Shown here: positions 10,461 through 60,423 of the stretch, one piece after another
Layout: each line of letters starts with the position of its first letter
How positions within the stretch are numbered: the first letter of the stretch is position 1
NCBI GenBank assembly: GCA_035626775.1
Contig: DASPNA010000078.1
Coordinates: forward strand, 42,771-106,770
Source of the DNA: Thermoanaerobaculia bacterium
GTDB lineage: Bacteria > Acidobacteriota > Thermoanaerobaculia > Gp7-AA8
Direction of reading: 5' to 3'
DNA: 64,000 nt
Made by a program: the position numbers and the translations under genes
Notes under the pieces: model-generated
What the model was told of the DNA's origin: nothing
The model's database searches: none
The model's input: only the letters and a program-made list of their open reading frames with translations

Positions 10461-10571
10461 GACCCCTCATCCGCCTTCGGCACCTTGTCCCCTCGCCGAG
10501 GGGAGAAGGCTACCCAGGTAGCCCTCGCCCCGCTTGCGGGGAGAGGGTGGCCAAAGGCCGGGTGAGGGGTC
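10461..10571. repeat. Palindromic element family 4 (GACCCCTCATCCG ... CGGGTGAGGGGTC terminal inverted repeats)
   Basis: Terminal inverted repeats GACCCCTCA/TGAGGGGTC, with internal hairpins CCCCTCGCCGAGGGG and CCCCGCTTGCGGGG. Related copies at 27237-27342 and 57204-57294. Confidence 0.7.
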
Positions 10572-20914: not shown

Positions 20915-21103
20915 ATCGATCCACGTTTTCGCAACACGCTCCGTATCTACAGCACGATGCAGATGCGCGTCTCGGTCGCGGTAGGCAACGTCACGATTCT
21001 CGTCGAGCACCTCACGGTCCCGTTGCCGATCCAGACGTGGGCGTTCATTACCGTCGCCAACAACGAAACGCAGGCGATCTCCACGATCACGCCGCAGCCG
21101 TAA
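20915..21103 (+). pseudogene. C-terminal fragment of a third IPT-paralog copy
   Basis: IDPRFRNTLRIYST...WAFITVANNETQAISTITPQP* matches the C-termini of the two downstream paralogs. It is followed by the same GGAGAAGA-ttcgATG junction. Confidence 0.5.
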
Positions 21104-21117
21104 CGGAGAAGAATTCG

Positions 21118-22113
21118 ATGCGATTCACGATCAAGCTCACGCTCCTGACGCTGCTCGCGACGTTGCCGCTCGCGGCGCAAACGAGCTACACCATCACTCC
21201 GGACAACGGTCCCACCTCCGGCGGCACACACGTCACGATCAAGGGCGACTTCGGCCAATGGCCGTATAGCGTGGACTTCGGCGACATCTCTGTGCCCGCG
21301 ACTCGCGTTGATGAGCACACGTTGACGGCGATCACGCCGCCGCACATGCCGGGCCGAGTCGACGTCGTGATCTTCGAGTACGACATCGGCATCACGACCG
21401 ATCTCACGTTCGAGTACATCGGGACCATGCCGGATGACTATGCACGGTTGCTTCTTCCGGTGTTTACGCCGGCCGTGCACGGCGCGTTCGGCTCGATCTT
21501 CGTCAGCGACCTGCGCGTGCTCAATTACGGAGGCATGTCGGCATCGATCCACGGCCTGGTGGCGGATTGTGCGCCGGTGATTTGCATCCCCTCCGAAGGT
21601 CCGTACGACCTCAGCCCGGGATCGGAAACGACGAACTTCGTCCCGAATGGCAATCCCGGCCGATTCGTGTACGTGAAGAAGGACCAGGCCGTGGGGCTGG
21701 CGATGAATCTGCGCGTATACGACACGACACGCGAGGCGCTCAACTTCGGCACCGAGATCCCGATCGTGCGCGAAGACGAGATGCCGCTGAACCGCGTCGT
21801 CTTCACGGGCGTCCCGACCGACCCGCGTTTTCGAAACACTTTGCGCATCTATTCGACGTTCCCATTCACGGCGATCGTCACCGTGGGCAATCGCGCGCCG
21901 GTACGCGTGCGGATGTTGGACACGACCGGGATCTACGATCCGTCTTACGCGATCTTCGGTGACTTTCCGGCGGACGGAAATCCCGTGCGCGTGACGATCG
22001 ATGCGGAGCTCGACTTCCAGACGCTGCTGCCGGTCGACGTACCGATCTGGGCGATGATCACGGTCACGAATAACGAAACGCAGATGATCTCGACGATCAC
22101 TCCGCAACCGTAA
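21118..22113 (+). CDS. Secreted IPT/TIG-domain protein, paralog 1
   Basis: Signal peptide MRFTIKLTLLTLLATLPLAAQ, then ITPDNGPTSGGTHVTIKG (IPT-like). About 90% identical to the next gene. Confidence 0.8.
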   Translation: MRFTIKLTLLTLLATLPLAAQTSYTITPDNGPTSGGTHVTIKGDFGQWPYSVDFGDISVPATRVDEHTLTAITPPHMPGRVDVVIFEYDIGITTDLTFEYIGTMPDDYARLLLPVFTPAVHGAFGSIFVSDLRVLNYGGMSASIHGLVADCAPVICIPSEGPYDLSPGSETTNFVPNGNPGRFVYVKKDQAVGLAMNLRVYDTTREALNFGTEIPIVREDEMPLNRVVFTGVPTDPRFRNTLRIYSTFPFTAIVTVGNRAPVRVRMLDTTGIYDPSYAIFGDFPADGNPVRVTIDAELDFQTLLPVDVPIWAMITVTNNETQMISTITPQP

Positions 22114-22127
22114 TGGAGAAGATTTCG

Positions 22128-23123
22128 ATGCGACTTACGCTCAAGCTCACGTTCCTGGTGCTGCTCGCGACATCGCCACTCGCGGCGCAAACGAACTACA
22201 CGATCACTCCGGACAACGGTCCCACCTCAGGCGGCACACACGTCACCATCAAGGGCGACTTCGGCCAATGGCCGTATGGCGTGATCTTCGGCGGCGTCTC
22301 TGTGCCCGCGACGCGCGTCGATGAGCACACGTTGACCGCAGTCACGCCGCCGCACATGCCCGGCAAGGTGGAGGTCGTCATCTTCGAGTTCGACATCGGC
22401 ATCAACACCGATCTCACGTTCGACTACATCGGGCCGGTCCCGGATGACTACGCACGGTTGCTCCTGCCGGTATTCACGCCGCCGGTGCACGGCGCGTTCG
22501 GCTCGCTGTTCTTCAGCAATCTGCGCGTACTGAACTACGGAGGCGCGACAGCATCGATCTACGGGCTCGAAATGGTCTGCGCGCCGATCCTCTGCATCCC
22601 GTTCGAAGGTCCGTTCGACCTCGGCCCCGGCTCAGAATCGACGGACTTCGTCCCGAACGGCAATCCCGGCCGCTTCGTGTACGTGAAGAAGGATCAGGCC
22701 GTGGGGCTGGCGATGAATTTACGCGTGTACGACACGACGCGCGAAGCGCTCAACTTCGGCACCGAGATCCCGATCGTGCGCGAGGAGGAGATGCCGCTGA
22801 ACCGCGTCGTCTTCACGGGCGTCCCGACCGATCCGCGTTTTCGCAACACGCTGCGCATCTATTCGACGTTCCCATTCACGGCGATCGTGACGATCGGAAA
22901 TCGACCGCCGGTGCGCGTGCGGATGTCGGACACCAACGGCATTCACGATCCGTCGTACGCCCAGTTCGGCGACTTTCCGACCGACGGCAATCCAGTACGC
23001 GTGACGATCGACGCGGAGCTCGACTTCCAGACGCTGCTGCCGGTCGACGTACCGATCTGGGCGATGATCACGGTCACGAACAACGAAACGCAGATGATCT
23101 CGACGATCACGCCGCAACCGTGA
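22128..23123 (+). CDS. Secreted IPT/TIG-domain protein, paralog 2
   Basis: MRLTLKLTFLVLLATSPLAAQ...; tandem duplicate of 21118..22113. An alternative ATG at 22113 would overlap as TAATG. Confidence 0.8.
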   Translation: MRLTLKLTFLVLLATSPLAAQTNYTITPDNGPTSGGTHVTIKGDFGQWPYGVIFGGVSVPATRVDEHTLTAVTPPHMPGKVEVVIFEFDIGINTDLTFDYIGPVPDDYARLLLPVFTPPVHGAFGSLFFSNLRVLNYGGATASIYGLEMVCAPILCIPFEGPFDLGPGSESTDFVPNGNPGRFVYVKKDQAVGLAMNLRVYDTTREALNFGTEIPIVREEEMPLNRVVFTGVPTDPRFRNTLRIYSTFPFTAIVTIGNRPPVRVRMSDTNGIHDPSYAQFGDFPTDGNPVRVTIDAELDFQTLLPVDVPIWAMITVTNNETQMISTITPQP

Positions 23124-23220
23124 CGAGGGGTCCCTCGGGTTCCTCGGTTCCTCGGGTTCCTCGGTGGGATAGGTTGCCCAATCGCCCACCCCGAGGAACC
23201 CGAGGAACCCCGAGGAACCG
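23124..23220. repeat. Palindromic element family 1
   Basis: gaggggtccctcgggttcctcggttcctcgggttcctcgg ... ccgaggaacccgaggaaccccgaggaaccg, between convergent genes. Confidence 0.75.
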
Positions 23221-27236: not shown

Positions 27237-27342
27237 ACCCTCGCCCCGCTTGCGGGGAGAGGGTGGCGCGCAGCGCCGGGTGAGGGGGACCCCTCATCCG
27301 CCTGCGGCACCTTCTCCCCTCGCGGAGGGGAGAAGGCTACCT
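27237..27342. repeat. Palindromic element family 4, permuted or tandem-partial arrangement
   Basis: ccctcgccccgcttgcggggagagggtggc...ccgggtgaggggg acccctcatccgcctgcggcaccttctcccctcgcggaggggagaaggctac. Confidence 0.7.
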
Positions 27343-27351
27343 GGGCGGCGT

Positions 27352-28554
27352 CTATCCGATCTGCGAGATCAGCGAGAACATCGGCATGTACATCGCGATG
27401 ACGATGCCGCCGATGGCGACGCCGAGGAAGGCGATCAGGACCGGCTCGAGGAGTTTCATGAGGCCGGCCACCGCGAGATCGACTTCGTCCTCGTAAAAGT
27501 CGGCGATTTTCGAAAGCATCGTGTCGAGCGCACCGGTCTGCTCGCCGACCGCGATCATCTGCACGACCATCGGCGGGAACACTTCGGTGTCACCGAGCGG
27601 CTCGCTGATCGTCTTGCCCTCTTCGACCGACTTGCGCGTGGCCATGATCGCGTCCTCGATGATTGAATTGCCGGCGGTGCGCGCCGTGATCTGCAGGCCG
27701 TCGAGGATCGGAACGCCCGACGAAGTCAGCGTCGACAACGTGCGGCAGAAACGGGCCACGGCGATCTTGCGCAGCAGCATGCCCAGGACCGGCGCGCGCA
27801 GCAGCAACCCGTCGATGACGCGCTTCCCTTTGTACGTCTCGCGATACTTGCGCACTGCGTAGACGGCGACGATGGCCAGGATGGTGATGAGCCACCAGAA
27901 GTCGCCGATGAAGTTCGACATCGCGATGACGACGCGCGTCGGCAGCGGCAGCTCCGCGCCGAGGCTGGCAAAGAGGGAGGCGAACACCGGGATGACCTTC
28001 CAGAGAATGATCATCACGACGATGACGGCGATGCTGATGACGGCGACCGGATAGATCATCGCCGACTTCACCTGTGAGTTCAGCTTGACCGACTTTTCGA
28101 TGTAGGTGGCCAGGCGCTGCAGGATGGTGTCGAGGATACCGCCCGCCTCACCGGCGGCGACCATGTTCGTGTAGAGATCGTTGAAGACCTTGGGGTGCTT
28201 GCGCATCGCGTCGGCGAGGTTGGAGCCGGACTCGACGTCCTGCCGCACCTGGATCAGCGTGCGCTTGAAAGCCTTGTGATCCTGCTGCGAACCGAGGATC
28301 TCCAGACACTGCACGAGTGGGAGACCGGCGTCGATCATGACCGAGAACTGGCGCGTGAAGATCGCCACCGACTGGGCCGGAACGCCGCCGCCGAACTTCG
28401 GCAGCGCGATCTCCTTCCCTTTTTCCTTGACGGCGGTGACGACGATCTGCTGCCGCCGCATCATGTTGATGACGGCGTCTTTCGAGTCGGCCACCAGCAC
28501 ACCTGTCTGCGTCTGACCGTTTCTCGCTGTGCCCTTCCACTCGAATGTCGGCAT
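27352..28554 (-). CDS. pilC: Type IV pilus assembly platform protein (GspF family)
   Basis: 400 aa. Two GspF-type repeats and three TM segments. Confidence 0.9.
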   Translation of the reverse strand: MPTFEWKGTARNGQTQTGVLVADSKDAVINMMRRQQIVVTAVKEKGKEIALPKFGGGVPAQSVAIFTRQFSVMIDAGLPLVQCLEILGSQQDHKAFKRTLIQVRQDVESGSNLADAMRKHPKVFNDLYTNMVAAGEAGGILDTILQRLATYIEKSVKLNSQVKSAMIYPVAVISIAVIVVMIILWKVIPVFASLFASLGAELPLPTRVVIAMSNFIGDFWWLITILAIVAVYAVRKYRETYKGKRVIDGLLLRAPVLGMLLRKIAVARFCRTLSTLTSSGVPILDGLQITARTAGNSIIEDAIMATRKSVEEGKTISEPLGDTEVFPPMVVQMIAVGEQTGALDTMLSKIADFYEDEVDLAVAGLMKLLEPVLIAFLGVAIGGIVIAMYMPMFSLISQIG

Positions 28555-28571: not shown

Positions 28572-28637
28572 CTGGAGCGACGGGCTCTCAGCCCGTCGAG
28601 CCCTGCATTTCGACGGGCCGAGAGCCCGTCGCTCCAG
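28572..28637. repeat. Palindromic element family 3, full copy
   Basis: ctggagcgacgggctctcagcccgtcg agccctgcatttcga cgggccgagagcccgtcgctccag. Confidence 0.75.
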
Positions 28638-28651
28638 TTCAGCTCCCGATT

Positions 28652-29779
28652 TTACGCCGGTCTTGGTCTCGCGCCCGCCGACGCAGGCGGACCCTGCGGG
28701 ACGATGGCGCCCGCGCCGCGCGAGATCATCTCCTGCAGCTCGTCCGGATTGGACGAGCGCGCCAACGCGGTCTGCAACGTGATCAGCTTCTTGAAGTACA
28801 GGGTCGCCAGCGACTGATTGAACGTCTGCATGCCGTACTTCGCCTGTCCGGTCTGCATCATCGAGTAGATCTGATGCACCTTGTCTTCACGGATGAGGTT
28901 GCGGATGGCGGGGTTCGGTACGAGGATCTCCATGGCCATGGCGCGGCCTTTTCCGTTCGCCTTGGGCAACAACGCCTGGCAGAGGATGCCTTCCAGCACG
29001 AACGACAACTGCGCGCGGATCTGCGGCTGCTGGTGCGCGGGAAAGACGTCGACGACGCGGTTGATCGTCTGCGCGGCCGAGTTCGTGTGCAGCGTGCCGA
29101 ACGTGAGGTGGCCCGTTTCGGCGATGCGCAGCGCCGACTCGATGGTCTCGAGGTCGCGCATCTCGCCGATGAGTACCACGTCGGGATCCTGACGCAGGGC
29201 GGACTTCAGCGAGTTGCCGAACGAGTGCGTATCGGCGTGCAGCTCGCGCTGGTTGACGATGCAGCTCTTGTGTTGATGGAGGAACTCGACCGGATCTTCG
29301 ATGGTGATGATGTGCTGATGGGTCTCGCGATTGATCTTGTCGATCATCGCGGCGAGCGTCGTCGATTTGCCCGAGCCGGTCGGACCGGTGACGAGCACGA
29401 GGCCGCGCGGCTTGCTGCAGATCTCTTCGACGACCGGCGGCAGTCCGAGCTCCTTGAAGCCGAGGATCTCGTACGGAATCTGCCGGTAGACCGCGGCCGT
29501 CGCGCCGCGCTGGTTGAAGATGTTCGCGCGGAAGCGCGCCAGCCCCTTGATGCCGAACGAAAGGTCGAGCTCGAGGTTTTCCTCGAAGCGATGCTTCTGC
29601 GCGTCGGTGAGCACCGAATACGCGAGCTGCTTGGTCTCCGGCGCGGTGAGCGGCGGGATGTCGAGCGGCACCAGCTTGCCGTCGATGCGAATCTGCGGAG
29701 GGGAGTTGGTCGTGACGTGGAGGTCGGAGCCTCCGCGCTCGACCATCGTCTTGAGGAGCTGGTGCAGTGTGATGGCCAT
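28652..29779 (-). CDS. pilT: Type IV pilus retraction ATPase
   Basis: MAITLHQLLKTMVERGGSDLH..., GPTGSGKSTTLAAMI (Walker A). ATG at 29779. The upstream ORF extension is derived from the AT-rich palindrome. Confidence 0.9.
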   Translation of the reverse strand: MAITLHQLLKTMVERGGSDLHVTTNSPPQIRIDGKLVPLDIPPLTAPETKQLAYSVLTDAQKHRFEENLELDLSFGIKGLARFRANIFNQRGATAAVYRQIPYEILGFKELGLPPVVEEICSKPRGLVLVTGPTGSGKSTTLAAMIDKINRETHQHIITIEDPVEFLHQHKSCIVNQRELHADTHSFGNSLKSALRQDPDVVLIGEMRDLETIESALRIAETGHLTFGTLHTNSAAQTINRVVDVFPAHQQPQIRAQLSFVLEGILCQALLPKANGKGRAMAMEILVPNPAIRNLIREDKVHQIYSMMQTGQAKYGMQTFNQSLATLYFKKLITLQTALARSSNPDELQEMISRGAGAIVPQGPPASAGARPRPA

Positions 29780-29815
29780 TGGTCCTGTCTCTCCAGTGCT
29801 ACATGCTTCGCGAGT

Positions 29816-29918
29816 GGAAATTGAAAATTGAAAATTGAAAATTGAAAAATCGGACTCCGGGTCGCGCGAGGCACCGACTTTCGTTTTTTCAATTTTCAAT
29901 TTTCAATTTTCAATTTCG
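29816..29918. repeat. AT-rich palindrome, (GAAAATT)x4 ... (CAATTTT)x4, family 5
   Basis: ggaaattgaaaattgaaaattgaaaattgaaaaatcgg ... ccgactttcgttttttcaattttcaattttcaattttcaatttcg. A stem of about 33 bp, between pilB and pilT. Confidence 0.8.
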
Positions 29919-31752: not shown

Positions 31753-32490
31753 TCAGCGCGGCAGCGGCGGCGGGTCACTGGCCGTCACGCCCTCGGTGAC
31801 TTTGTTGAGCGTCGCGGTGATGCTGCCGAACTTCACTTCGGTACGAATGCGCAGCGGCAGACGGCGCTCGTCATCGGAGTACCAGATGAACAGCTTCTCT
31901 TCGCGCTGCACGCCGGCGCTGGCCATCTGCGGCTCCACCAGCAGCGCGTTGAACGTGCCAAGCGGCGTCGTGATCTGCTCGCGCTTCACCACGTTGCCGT
32001 ACACGGTGTAGAGCTTGCCGCCGTCGATCAGTTTCAATTCATACGACTTCCCGGGTGCGAGCTCGAGCGTCCGGAAGTAATAGATGACGGAGATGGGATC
32101 GAAGATCGGACGGGGCACCGGCGTCTTGCGGATCTTCTTCCGCTTGCGAGACGCGACGCCGTCTTCGATGGTGATGGTCTCGCGCATCTTGTCGCCGCGC
32201 TCGTCGAGGCTCTTCACGATCTTGATGGTGGAAAAGTCTTCGCGCGCGACGGTGGTCTCGATCTCGTCCCGGATGCGGAAGAGGCGGCCCAGACCACCCC
32301 CGGACTTGGCCACGGAAGTGATGCGATAGTGCGCGTCGTCGTGCGGCGAGATGGTCATGCGCGCGGTACCGCCCGTGACCTTCATCCAGGTGACGGTGAA
32401 GTCGAGCGTCTCTCCTGCCTCGTACGTATCGTGGAGCGGACCGGCGATGGACGCGGAAACCGCGAAGAGAACCGCGAGCGCAAAAGTCAC
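31753..32490 (-). CDS. DUF3108-family protein
   Basis: Signal-peptide-like N-terminus and DUF3108-like size and composition. 4-nt overlap with the upstream GT9 gene. Confidence 0.65.
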   Translation of the reverse strand: MTFALAVLFAVSASIAGPLHDTYEAGETLDFTVTWMKVTGGTARMTISPHDDAHYRITSVAKSGGGLGRLFRIRDEIETTVAREDFSTIKIVKSLDERGDKMRETITIEDGVASRKRKKIRKTPVPRPIFDPISVIYYFRTLELAPGKSYELKLIDGGKLYTVYGNVVKREQITTPLGTFNALLVEPQMASAGVQREEKLFIWYSDDERRLPLRIRTEVKFGSITATLNKVTEGVTASDPPPLPR

Positions 32491-33407
32491 TCCGCGGTGA
32501 CCCTTCCCAGCATCGTCATCACCTCTTCAACACTTATCGAGTCCATCCATTTCGTGGTGGAAAAACGGTCGATGCAATGTTGCAGTTGGTGATACGGACC
32601 GTTGCGCCGTGGATTGGTCGGGCCGTAGAGGCCGATGACCTTCGTCCCGAGCGCGTCCGCGAGGTGCAGCGGGCCGGTGTCGCCGCCGATGACGACCTCT
32701 GCACTTTGGAGCAGACCTGCAAGCTCACGCAGGTTCGTCGACGGCGCGATACGAGCTCCGATCGCTTCCGCGAGCTCCCGTTCTCCCGGCCCCCACGCCG
32801 CGACCGCGCGCGGACCGATGCGCTTTGCGAGCTCGCGAAAACGCTCGACGGGCCACAGTTTGTTGGCCTTTCCGGCACCCGGGAGCAGGACGATGGAGTT
32901 TTCATAGCCAGGAACCGGAACCGCGAAATCGTCCCAATTCTGGAGCGACGGGCTCTCAGCCCGTCGGGTCTCGAGGTCGACCGGCTGAGAGCCCGTCGCT
33001 CCAGATGCGAGCTGCAGGTTTTGATCGATGACGTGCGACGCCGCATCGACACGTACGTGGCGGTTCGTGAACAGGAGCGCGGCTTTCTCGCGGATGGCGT
33101 GGCGATCGAATCCGTATCGCGTTTTCGCACCTGACAACCATCCGAGCGCCGCCGATTTGATCAGTCCCTGAAAGTCGACAGATGCATCGAAGCCGCGCGC
33201 GCTGCGAATCGCGCGAATGGCAGCTCGCGGTTCTTTCTTCATGCGCACCGGCAGCACCTCCACACCCGCGACGATCTCCACGAGCTCGCGATACGGCGCT
33301 TCGACGACCCACGTGACGTCCGCCGCGTTCTTGAGCGACACGACCGCGGGGATGGTGTGAATGACGTCGCCGAGTGCTGACAGACGAAGGACGAGCAGAC
33401 GGCTCAT
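32487..33407 (-). CDS. Glycosyltransferase family 9 (ADP-heptose:LPS heptosyltransferase-like)
   Basis: [22 protein letters not shown]...[24 protein letters not shown] (GT9 signature). ATGA overlap with hldC at 33404-33407. Contains an in-frame family-3 repeat. Confidence 0.8.
32940..33004. repeat. Palindromic element family 3, full copy embedded in-frame within the GT9 CDS
   Basis: ctggagcgacgggctctcagcccgtcg ggtctcgaggtcgac cggctgagagcccgtcgctccag. Translated on the minus strand as [21 protein letters not shown]. Confidence 0.75.
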
Positions 33408-48224: not shown

Positions 48225-49280
48225 TCAGGCGATCCGAGAACGAGCCTCGACACGCCGCGGATCGCCGGCGTTGCCTTTTTGTAACCCCGCGAACGCGATC
48301 ATGGCCGCGTTGTCGGTGCAATAGCGCTTCTCCGGCAGGCGCACCACCACGCCGCGATGCTCGCCCCACGCGAGCATCCGCTCGCGGATGACTCCGTTGG
48401 CCGCCACACCGCCTGCAAGCGCCACCGCTTCGGGCTTCTCCCCTTCCAACCGCTGCCATATCGAATCGAGGCGATCGAAGAGTTGCGCGACGAGCGCTTC
48501 CTGAAAGGTCGCGCAGAAATCCTGGAACAACGGGCTCTCGGCCCATTCCGGATTTTCGTCGGGCTGAGAGCCCGTCGTTCCAGCCTGGATGGCGTGCTCG
48601 CGCGCGAGCCGGATCGCACCCGCTTTCAGGCCGCTATACGAAAAGTCCAACGACTCGTCGCGGAACTGCGGCACGACGAACGGGAACCGCTTCGCATCGA
48701 CCTTGCCGGCGCGTCCGTGTTTTTCGATCTCCGGCCCTCCGGGATACGGCAGGCCAATGAACTTCGCGACTTTGTCGAAGGTCTCGCCGATCGCATCATC
48801 GCGCGTGCGATTGAGCTGGCGGATGTCGCTGCCGCGCACGTCGTAGATCGCGGAGTGGCCACCGGAGATCACGAGCGAGAGAAAGCGCGCCGGCAACGGC
48901 AGCGCCGCTCCTTCGCGTTGCAGAAAAGGCGAGTAGATGTGACCTTCGAGATGATTGACGGGCATCAGCGGAATGCCCAATCCGTACGCGAGTCCCTGCG
49001 CGCCGGCCACGCCGACGAGCAACGCGCCGATCAATCCCGGACCCGACGTCACCGCAATCGAGTCGACGTCACTCCATTGCGCATTCGCGTCACCAAGCGC
49101 GCGCTCGACGAGCGGAAACAGATGCTGCAGATGCTCGCGCGACGCGATCTCCGGCACCACGCCGCCGAACGGCTGATGCCGCGCGATCTGCGAGTTGATC
49201 AGGTTCACGCGCACGTTCCCGTCGCGCTCGAGCAGAGCGACGGAAGTCTCGTCGCAGGACGTTTCGATTCCGAGGATCAC
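48225..49280 (-). CDS. tsaD: tRNA N6-adenosine threonylcarbamoyltransferase
   Basis: MILGIETSCDETSVAL..., HLEGH and GGVAAN motifs. Confidence 0.9.
   Translation of the reverse strand: MILGIETSCDETSVALLERDGNVRVNLINSQIARHQPFGGVVPEIASREHLQHLFPLVERALGDANAQWSDVDSIAVTSGPGLIGALLVGVAGAQGLAYGLGIPLMPVNHLEGHIYSPFLQREGAALPLPARFLSLVISGGHSAIYDVRGSDIRQLNRTRDDAIGETFDKVAKFIGLPYPGGPEIEKHGRAGKVDAKRFPFVVPQFRDESLDFSYSGLKAGAIRLAREHAIQAGTTGSQPDENPEWAESPLFQDFCATFQEALVAQLFDRLDSIWQRLEGEKPEAVALAGGVAANGVIRERMLAWGEHRGVVVRLPEKRYCTDNAAMIAFAGLQKGNAGDPRRVEARSRIA
48557..48583. repeat. Half copy of palindromic element family 3, in-frame inside tsaD
   Basis: cgtcgggctgagagcccgtcgttccag, translated as ...TTGSQPDENPEWAESPLFQ... 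Confidence 0.65.
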
Positions 49281-49328
49281 TCGCGCGGTAACGCGCGTCG
49301 GGCGGCGGAACGTTCCCGGCGCCGGGCG

Positions 49329-49477
49329 CAGAGTCTCAGAGTCTCAGAGTCTCAGAGGGTCGGTGGGACTCGCCGTTTTCAGAGCGGAGCAATCCGCGTT
49401 ACCGGAAATTCAGAGAAACGCCCGTCCCCACGACCCTCTGAGACTCTGAGACTCTGAGACTCTGAGACTCTGAGACT
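49329..49477. repeat. Palindromic element family 2, large copy
   Basis: (cagagtct)x3-4 gagggtcggtgggac ... gtccccacgaccctc (tgagactc)x4. Confidence 0.8.
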
Positions 49478-49533
49478 TCACGCAACGATCCGCACGCGTC
49501 CATTCGCGCGACGCTCCGAGCACGCGCCCTATA

Positions 49534-57203: not shown

Positions 57204-57294
57204 CCCCTCATCCGGCGCCTTCGGCCACCTTCGCCCCGCGCCGCGGGGCGAAGGCTACGAGGCGCGTGCCAAGGTGCCGAAGGCGGATGAGGGG
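57204..57294. repeat. Palindromic element family 4, compact variant
   Basis: cccctcatccg gcgccttcggccaccttcgccccgcgccgcggggcgaaggctac ... cggatgagggg. Confidence 0.7.
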
Positions 57295-60299: not shown

Positions 60300-60325
60300 A
60301 ATCGGCGCGGTATATCACACGGAGG

Positions 60326-60423
60326 GAGTTCCTCGGGTTCCTCGGTTCCTCGGAGGGGAACGCGATGTGATGCTCCTCCCCTCCGAGGGACCCGAGGTAC
60401 TCCGAGGAACCCGAGGAACTCAC
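60326..60423. repeat. Palindromic element family 1
   Basis: gagttcctcgggttcctcggttcctcggaggggaa ... ccctccgagggacccgaggtactccgaggaacccgaggaactc. Confidence 0.75.

Follow-up and report, generated by a model that had tools for sequence, protein, structure and literature searches.

A REP doublet read in frame within tsaD of a Thermoanaerobaculia bacterium

The tsaD gene of a Thermoanaerobaculia bacterium carries within its coding sequence a complete, inverted doublet of short palindromic repeats, and this doublet is read in frame as part of the enzyme. We analysed a stretch of 64,000 nucleotides of one contig (the window), and our data argue that the element is very probably a non-autonomous, REPIN-like REP doublet that was inserted in the loop between helices alpha7 and alpha8 of TsaD and that has been carried there as a tolerated passenger while the gene itself was kept. 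Such a family would move as single-stranded hairpin DNA by means of a RAYT-like enzyme, and the insertion in tsaD would predate the split between the window species and the species represented by locus L034. In the tsaD frame the element would have supplied a stop-free peptide rich in Gly, Ser, Thr, Pro and acidic residues, the enzyme would have stayed functional and under strong purifying selection, and the element would then have drifted from the family consensus, with one unit left in the L034 lineage. Among copies in genes that matter, the survivors would be only those events that preserved the frame, contained no stop codon and fell in loops. The host gene and the parts of the element are as follows:

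48225-49280, minus strand: tsaD (tRNA N6-adenosine threonylcarbamoyltransferase), 351 aa, with the insert at residues ~233-253

48522-48583, inside tsaD: complete REP doublet of 62 nt, reading CTGGAACGACGGGCTCTCAGCCCGACG-AAAATCCG-GAATGGGCCGAGAGCCCGTTGTTCCAG in the sense direction and translated as (A)GTTGSQPDENPEWAESPLFQ

48557-48583, minus strand: better-preserved unit, the 27-mer cgtcgggctgagagcccgtcgttccag, which comes first (5') in the tsaD sense

48522-48548, plus strand: partner unit, more diverged, CTGGAACAACGGGCTCTCGGCCCATTC, recognised by a covariance-model match and by its identity to the family reference copy

The host gene product matches PF00814 and is 100% identical to an NCBI protein named TsaD (HYC60493.1). 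It aligns with E. coli TsaD (4YDU) with an E value of 1e-63, and its AlphaFold (AF2) model superposes on 4YDU with a TM score of 0.80. In addition to the PF00814 fold, the protein has the HxxxH metal-binding motif (HLEGH, residue 110) and the CTDN motif (residue 321) of the TsaD/Kae1/Qri7 family, both of which are intact. The gene order ValRS - TsaD - epimerase/DUF1731 is conserved in the related loci L035, L037 and L038, and in L037 and L038 a gene for a TonB-type outer-membrane protein comes next after epimerase/DUF1731. The tsaD gene is essential in most bacteria, not in all.

The original prediction that tsaD contains a member of a repeat family within its reading frame is borne out both by the repeat content of the window and by the frame itself, which runs ...LAREHAIQ-AGTTGSQPDENPEWAESPLFQ-DFCATFQ... 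across the insert. At three or fewer mismatches the 27-mer has six matches in the window versus 0.00 expected from 100 shuffles, and its 13-nt hairpin core has eight matches versus 0.11 expected. A covariance model of the unit finds exactly eight units in the 64-kb window, and these form four doublets. The doublets follow the plan CTGGAG-CGACGGGCTCTCAGCCCGTCG-(11-12 nt)-CGACGGGCTGAGAGCCCGTCG-CTCCAG, in which two hairpin units lie in inverted orientation; every unit carries a CTGGAG (variant CTGGAAC) head, and its 9-bp stem closes a loop of 3 nt. All four window copies are doublets, 62-66 nt in length, whose RNA folds range from -47 to -61 kcal/mol (z -7 to -10.6), and two of the four are intragenic. 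The three copies outside tsaD are located as follows:

28572-28637: canonical intergenic doublet, 66 nt, between the minus-strand ORFs 27352-28554 and 28652-29899; RNA fold -61.4 kcal/mol

15733-15797: intergenic doublet, 65 nt, which takes up the space that separates two convergent genes ending with stop codons at 15732 and 15800; RNA fold -60.2 kcal/mol

32940-33004: near-canonical doublet, 65 nt, in frame within a GT9 glycosyltransferase gene and translated as (S) followed by 21 residues

The tsaD copy had been described as a half element at 48557-48583. This interval is indeed the better-preserved arm, but the description as a half is wrong, because the covariance model resolves the eight units of the window into four doublets; the tsaD copy is the full inverted doublet at 48522-48583, with arms, spacer and heads in the correct doublet geometry. 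Similarly, the 21-residue peptide attributed to the half element is read in frame as proposed, but it is encoded by the entire 62-nt doublet. The 48557-48583 unit consists of a CTGGAAC head and a hairpin whose 3-nt loop is closed by a stem of 9 bp. It differs from the family consensus at two of its 27 positions and scores 43.1 bits (E 7e-7) with covariance model R1, of which it is itself a training member. The partner arm at 48522-48548 has the core GGGCCGAGAGCCC on the minus strand, is 78% identical to the family reference copy and scores higher with the covariance model (18 bits, E ~0.1) than any other window sequence that was not used to train it. As RNA, the tsaD doublet folds with -47.1 kcal/mol (z -7.1), and in the tsaD mRNA the 18-bp outer stem of the doublet is still intact, with one G-U pair only.

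Comparison with orthologs confirms that the doublet is an insertion. We took the best 120 of 8000 scored TsaD homologs (77-93% identity), 112 of which are readable across the loop, and in 106 of these 112 the segment between IRLAREH and FCATFQ is 13 residues long, compared to 25 in the window protein (+12). The same loop has 18 residues in P0002 and 17 in P0003. In P0003 the +4 insertion is unrelated to the repeat, and three other homologs are off by one residue. Relative to E. coli TsaD the loop had been estimated as 10-12 residues longer; it is longer, by a measured 16 residues. The counterargument that such a loop might be normal for this clade, with no repeat in relatives, fails on both sides, as the clade has 13 residues where the window has 25 and the closest relative, L034, has a unit of the repeat at this very codon.

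In a blastn comparison of the window with the syntenic, empty-site ortholog L037 the alignment breaks exactly at the element (48521/48587), and window positions 48522-48586 (65 nt) stand for 29 nt of L037. With 65 nt in and 29 nt out, the event is a replacement and not a clean insertion, and the net gain of 36 nt corresponds to 12 codons, so that the reading frame is kept. No target-site duplication is visible when the tsaD site is compared with L037. The insert is not an assembly artefact: tsaD is 100% nucleotide-identical in two independent ENA assemblies (L038 and L039), whose contigs are 98.9-99.7% identical to the window.

In the AF2 model of the window TsaD, whose confidence is only moderate (mean pLDDT 76, with 20 sequences in the alignment), residues 229-249 form a coil between helices 216-228 and 250-277, with pLDDT values below 50 at residues 235-240. 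Because window residue F213 aligns with F207 of T. maritima TsaD, helix 216-228 is assigned as alpha7, and the alpha7-alpha8 loop thus spans ~5 residues in T. maritima versus 20 in the window protein. In the 2026 cryo-EM structures of the T. maritima TsaB2D-tRNA complex, alpha7 (Tm 210-223) runs along the D-stem of the tRNA, with contacts provided by residues 207-218 (PMC13276492). The insert starts ~3 residues past the end of alpha7. The loop is acidic in the window protein, in the clade (IRIDGD..) and in E. coli (RDNGTDDQ), which suggests that it may be directed away from the RNA backbone. The insert would most likely be a tolerated passenger in a length-variable, solvent-exposed loop and not an adaptation; its neutrality is only assumed, because it starts so near the tRNA-contacting helix.

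The allele that bears on the age of the insert is that of L034, which encodes P0002. Its identity to the window tsaD, 89% at the DNA level and 93% at the protein level, indicates a different species. At the same codon L034 has a single unit, CTGGAACGACGGGCTCTCAGCCTGTCG, with the same CTGGAAC head, and at the left junction both the window and L034 alleles have a Gln codon (CAG/CAA) where the clade has Arg (CGC). For the L034 remnant AAGGCCCGCTCGCC, the ancestral ACCGCGCTCGCT and the right end of the element are about equally good matches. Between the window and L034 genes we calculated a dN of 0.032 and a dS of 0.357 (dN/dS 0.089); given this ratio and the intact motifs, the host tsaD has been under strong purifying selection since the event. 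These alleles show an insert kept across a speciation.

The CTGGAAC head is not peculiar to the tsaD site. A doublet at the unrelated locus L047 (= L049) has the same CTGGAAC head and also the characters GGGCC, GTTG and TTCCAG of the tsaD right arm, which are therefore subfamily characters. Moreover, the differences A6, A8 and G19 of the tsaD partner unit are all three found in a unit of this locus, and the arms of the tsaD copy differ from the L047 relative at 5 of 54 positions versus 8 of 54 from the overall consensus. The shared characters favour a history in which a complete doublet would have been inserted and one arm then lost in L034, although with two lineages and an ambiguous L034 remnant the reverse order would fit as well. 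In-place compensatory evolution of the CTGGAAC/GTTCCAG outer stem within tsaD was considered and rejected: other genomes commonly contain CTGGAAC units, and an unrelated locus has a CTGGAAC...GTTCCAG homodimer whose right arm shows the same characters.

It is unlikely that two independent events at a hot spot brought a doublet into the window lineage and a single unit into the L034 lineage at the same codon. Events of this kind would fit the loop of the GT9 gene, in which orthologs sharing 85% identity have different families of REP doublets at one codon position, and they would fit the L034 unit (a CCTGTCG variant), which is identical to a unit at the unrelated locus L048; the nucleotide before the element, G in the window and T in L034, points in the same direction. 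Yet both alleles have the Gln left-junction codon, where the clade has Arg, together with the CTGGAAC head, and the window and L034 TsaD proteins are mutually closest among the best 120 of 8000 scored homologs.

Domestication of the insert, with the loop now functional in tRNA binding or TsaE cycling or the mRNA hairpin in tsaD mRNA stability or translation, appears decidedly improbable. The insert adjoins the D-stem-binding alpha7 (PMC13276492), it persisted through a speciation, and its 18-bp outer stem with the single G-U pair remains intact in the mRNA (z -7), all of which speaks for a function. However, descent from the CTGGAAC homodimer subfamily accounts for the intact outer stem. L034, in turn, has one unit, and the RNA fold of its unit region is no better than that of shuffles (z -0.84), so the complete peptide is not conserved and nor is the long hairpin; the -47 kcal/mol hairpin, being lost in this sister lineage, is unlikely to be required. 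The presence of the family in unrelated proteins and linkers also argues for tolerance over function. Finally, chance resemblance, ordinary loop variation or an assembly chimera has next to no probability, since, apart from the slight variation of the loop within the clade (P0003 by four residues, three homologs by one), zero matches are expected, both arms, the spacer and the heads stand in doublet geometry, the gene is identical in three independent assemblies and the unit is also present in a different species.

Insertion of a tolerated passenger is also what the other copies point to, as translated in-frame copies recur across genes. The second intragenic copy in the window is carried by the following gene:

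32487-33407, minus strand: GT9 heptosyltransferase-like gene, 306 aa, which hosts the doublet 32940-33004

The product of this gene is 100% identical to P0122 (306 aa), which is named 'glycosyltransferase family 9 protein [Thermoanaerobaculia bacterium]'. The PF01075 match covers residues 111-324 of the queried GT9 ORF translation and extends across the insert at 180-201, and the doublet is translated in the frame that is also used in tsaD. In the ortholog L041 a short loop, RAFANEGSGRA, is found at the insert position. Heptosyltransferases are a class usually dispensable for viability, as seen in E. coli waaC and waaF mutants. To call tsaD a second essential gene that tolerates the element was therefore an overstatement, the other intragenic copy being in this heptosyltransferase-like gene.

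The genome SMAG_U3424 has at least five genes with intragenic units, and Pfam domains span or flank each of them; copies were counted as intragenic only with Pfam support across the element or on both its sides. These are:

L002: Aldolase_II-SDR fusion, element between both domains

L008: Peptidase_M56, element within the domain

L009: DinB_2/FGE-sulfatase protein, element between both domains

L017: AAA-TPR-BTAD regulator, element between the AAA and TPR regions

L019: DUF3857 protein, element within the domain

Calling intragenic copies on the basis of GC3 was rejected, as it gave false positives and one false negative (the GT9 copy was missed). L006, L031 and the 815-aa ORF of L021 were discarded as intragenic hosts, their translations reading as junk, and the 288-aa ORF of L021 is a bacterioferritin with the element upstream of the Ferritin domain. 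The 65-nt canonical doublets have two of three frames per strand free of stops, and the third frame contains a TGA in one arm.

A wider proposal is that Thermoanaerobaculia contain an undescribed, TGGAG-headed REP-doublet superfamily that systematically generates diversity in protein loops; we regard it as speculative and rather doubtful. Doublets would then enter coding DNA by replacing short loop-coding segments, frames that are stop-free and loop-friendly would be favoured, and doublets would succeed one another at the same codon, as the two families in the GT9 loop may have done. The tsaD insert, located beside the D-stem helix, could in that case have altered tRNA handling.

Beyond the window, a scan of one genome per species revealed the unit in three other Thermoanaerobaculia MAGs, with SMAG_U3424 accounting for 27 of the 33 loci among the matches listed, and when JGI metagenomes were scanned for the CTGGAAC variant, two samples yielded 27 loci. 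Among units from loci preselected for carrying the repeat, 50 of 68 have the CTGGAG head. In SMAG_U3424 the outer stem of the partner hairpin is often a different one, such as TGCC...GGCA. Among 29 distinct units covariation is seen at the three outer pairs of the stem (CG/UA/GC, GC/AU/CG and AU/CG/GC), and stem cells changed on both sides number 27 compared to 6.5 in shuffles, with none of 500 shuffles reaching 27, in a set of units chosen for at least eight paired positions, which biases toward pairing.

A search by tblastn with an approximate E. coli YafM query, which is a weak probe for RAYTs, returned nothing at E<0.4 in 383 kb, and in another 254 kb the same query had no match at E<1. 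In L030, none of the ORFs that lie between REPs is a transposase candidate. Overall, no transposase of any kind (RAYT/Y1 or other) was found with this weak probe in ~640 kb from incomplete genomes carrying the family, so that the mobilisation of the family is inferred. None of the window copies is flanked by a target-site duplication. In several metagenome copies AT is present on both sides of the element; this flanking AT is self-complementary and could equally belong to the palindrome. A search of Rfam gave no family match and only sub-threshold chance matches, among them mir-645 (21.6 bits versus a gathering score of 90) and, on the upstream repeat, EBv-sisRNA-2. Our literature search found no work on repeats of this bacterial class.

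The element is of an already known sort, namely translated intragenic palindromes such as the Rickettsia RPEs and the REPs described in 2013, and it involves no new mechanism. The RPEs, an account of which is attributed to Ogata et al. 2000 and which are mentioned in PMC3733652, are said to be palindromic mobile repeats present in frame in many unrelated functional Rickettsia genes, where they are reportedly translated as an extra surface segment while the host protein is kept under selection. RPE-1 is reportedly ~100-150 bp long, A+T-rich and confined to Rickettsia. Like the RPEs, the present element is palindromic, lies in frame in unrelated genes, is translated and has a host under selection; unlike the RPE hosts, the present organism is presumably free-living, with 63% G+C and not a reduced intracellular genome. 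Judged by composition (~70% G+C here), length and host, homology to RPEs is very unlikely and the likeness is one of behaviour.

With REPs and REPINs the family shares a dispersed hairpin palindrome, inverted doublets that form one hairpin and compensatory stem changes. It departs from them in its location, which is not extragenic for two of the four window copies and for at least five more in SMAG_U3424. As in the REPIN-RAYT system (Bertels and Rainey 2011, PMC3116915), two inverted REPs form a hairpin of ~60-70 nt with many copies per genome, there are subfamilies with compensatory stem changes, and there are singletons that resemble remnants of doublets. In contrast to that system, no RAYT was found (~640 kb, weak probe) and there is no GTAG head, and whereas REPINs are described as extragenic (PMC3116915), half of the window copies are intragenic. 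Compared with MITEs, the whole element is an inverted repeat, but it has no flanking direct duplication and no related IS was seen.

The tagged REPs offer a comparison for the intragenic copies, which we draw from the available text of the paper describing them: GTAG- and CGTC-tagged REPs are also present inside ORFs (Di Nocera, De Gregorio and Rocco 2013, PMC3733652). According to that text, dimers or groups that encode 20-30 residues make up over half of the inserts in genes, tRNA synthetases and pseudouridine synthases are among the host proteins, the authors propose that the inserts are tolerated because they fall in flexible linkers or loops, and the CGTC repeats are without a dedicated transposase (PMC3733652). 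The present family resembles these REPs, as portrayed there, in its short hairpin units, which bear a conserved tag at one end and mostly form inverted head-to-head dimers, and in being mostly intergenic with a minority wholly inside ORFs; as for the CGTC repeats, no associated transposase was found in our incomplete genomes (PMC3733652). The text gives the CGTC-tagged REPs a CGTC head, an 8-9 bp stem starting with A-T pairs, a 4-5 nt loop and a CCA-like tail (PMC3733652). Set against this description, the 9-bp stem and the tail CTCCAG, which contains CCA, fit, whereas the end opposite the tail is CGAC, the first stem pairs are C-G and G-C and the loop has 3 nt; nor does the unit alignment contain GTAG. 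Thus, the present units are distinguished from the GTAG and CGTC REPs of that text by the tag CTGGAG/CTGGAAC, by a stem that is G+C-rich from the first pair and by the 3-nt loop (PMC3733652). In the same text, the Acidobacteriota class Thermoanaerobaculia is not among the phyla given for either superfamily, and tsaD is not among the hosts mentioned for intragenic REPs (PMC3733652).

With the tsaD copy, the range of translated selfish palindromes now includes soil Acidobacteriota and, among host proteins, a tRNA-modification enzyme that is universally conserved. The event is well dated, as full, half and empty alleles are present in related species and the host gene has a dN/dS of 0.09, and the site, directly after the helix that binds the tRNA D-stem, provides a natural variant in which the importance of this loop can be tested. 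For annotation, odd inserts of 10-25 residues that contain GATGSQP or RRAESPSLQ in proteins of this clade should be read as repeat-derived.

The loop of the glycosyltransferase family 9 (GT9) gene that hosts an in-frame CTGGAG doublet (a REP-type element of two inverted hairpin units) at window 32940-33004 is an insertion hot spot. In the GT9 ortholog at locus L040, which is 85% identical, the same codon is occupied by a doublet that equals that of the window in length and belongs to a different family:

L040, about 530-589: doublet ATGGAGTGCGGCAGC...GCCACCGCACTCCAT, two 8-bp hairpins

The ortholog at locus L041 has a short loop, RAFANEGSGRA, and across 120 homologs the loop-spanning segment ranges from 27 to 77 residues. 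Several peptides recur in GT9 homologs, for example TKAVAAATALQN, FGVRWPQPPLW and GATSFARAAPHPSPLPGGE, and these look repeat-derived.

The flanks of the CTGGAAC variant of the unit were inspected in the 27 loci (L042-L068) from two JGI metagenomes (Ga0196977 and Ga0196978). CAT or AAT precedes many of the units, and AT follows several of the doublets; therefore, the palindrome may be longer, reaching AT-CTGGA...TCCAG-AT, or a 2-bp AT target may be duplicated, two readings that are indistinguishable because AT is self-complementary. Single units appear to be read in frame with recognisable coding motifs at two of these loci, an aminotransferase-like VVINPNNPTG (L050) and a methyltransferase-like LDIGCGSG (L054). 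In SMAG_U3424, another Thermoanaerobaculia MAG, a block that includes a variant hairpin and a canonical unit is present as a tandem duplicate, 143 nt apart (L015, 5828-6058).

Two convergent genes of the window, with stops at 15732 and 15800, are separated by a 67-nt gap that another doublet, at 15733-15797, fills exactly. Gaps between convergent genes are a typical location of REPs with a role in bidirectional termination or mRNA stabilisation.

The divergent intergenic region between tsaD, itself host to a CTGGAAC-headed doublet, and valS holds a further palindromic element (window 49328-49358 and 49436-49478), in which tandem 8-mers, (CAGAGTCT)n, stand opposite (AGACTCTG)n with ~75 nt between them. 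A search of this element against Rfam gave only a sub-threshold chance match (EBv-sisRNA-2). The element recurs near 12.5 kb, where its neighbour is a tandem repeat of four copies (window 12042-12366; period ~80 nt, 61-100% identity):

Window 12524-12627: second copy of the tsaD-valS 8-mer palindromic element

The window also contains a 54-nt dispersed repeat, GACCCCTCATCCGCCTTCGGCACCTTGTCCCCTCGCCGAGGGGAGAAGGCTACC, which includes the hairpin CCCCTCGCCGAGGGG and is found in three copies with 63-100% identity:

Window 10461-10514: copy of the 54-nt repeat
Window 27288-27341: copy of the 54-nt repeat
Window 57206-57259: copy of the 54-nt repeat

Short arrays of GGTTCCTCGG-type repeats are dispersed over three sites (window 11857-11893, 23125-23170 and 60323-60359). 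Finally, window 20917-23125 holds three tandem copies of a longer repeat (period 1010 nt), the ends of which are 81-91% identical; these are probably three paralogous genes or domains side by side.
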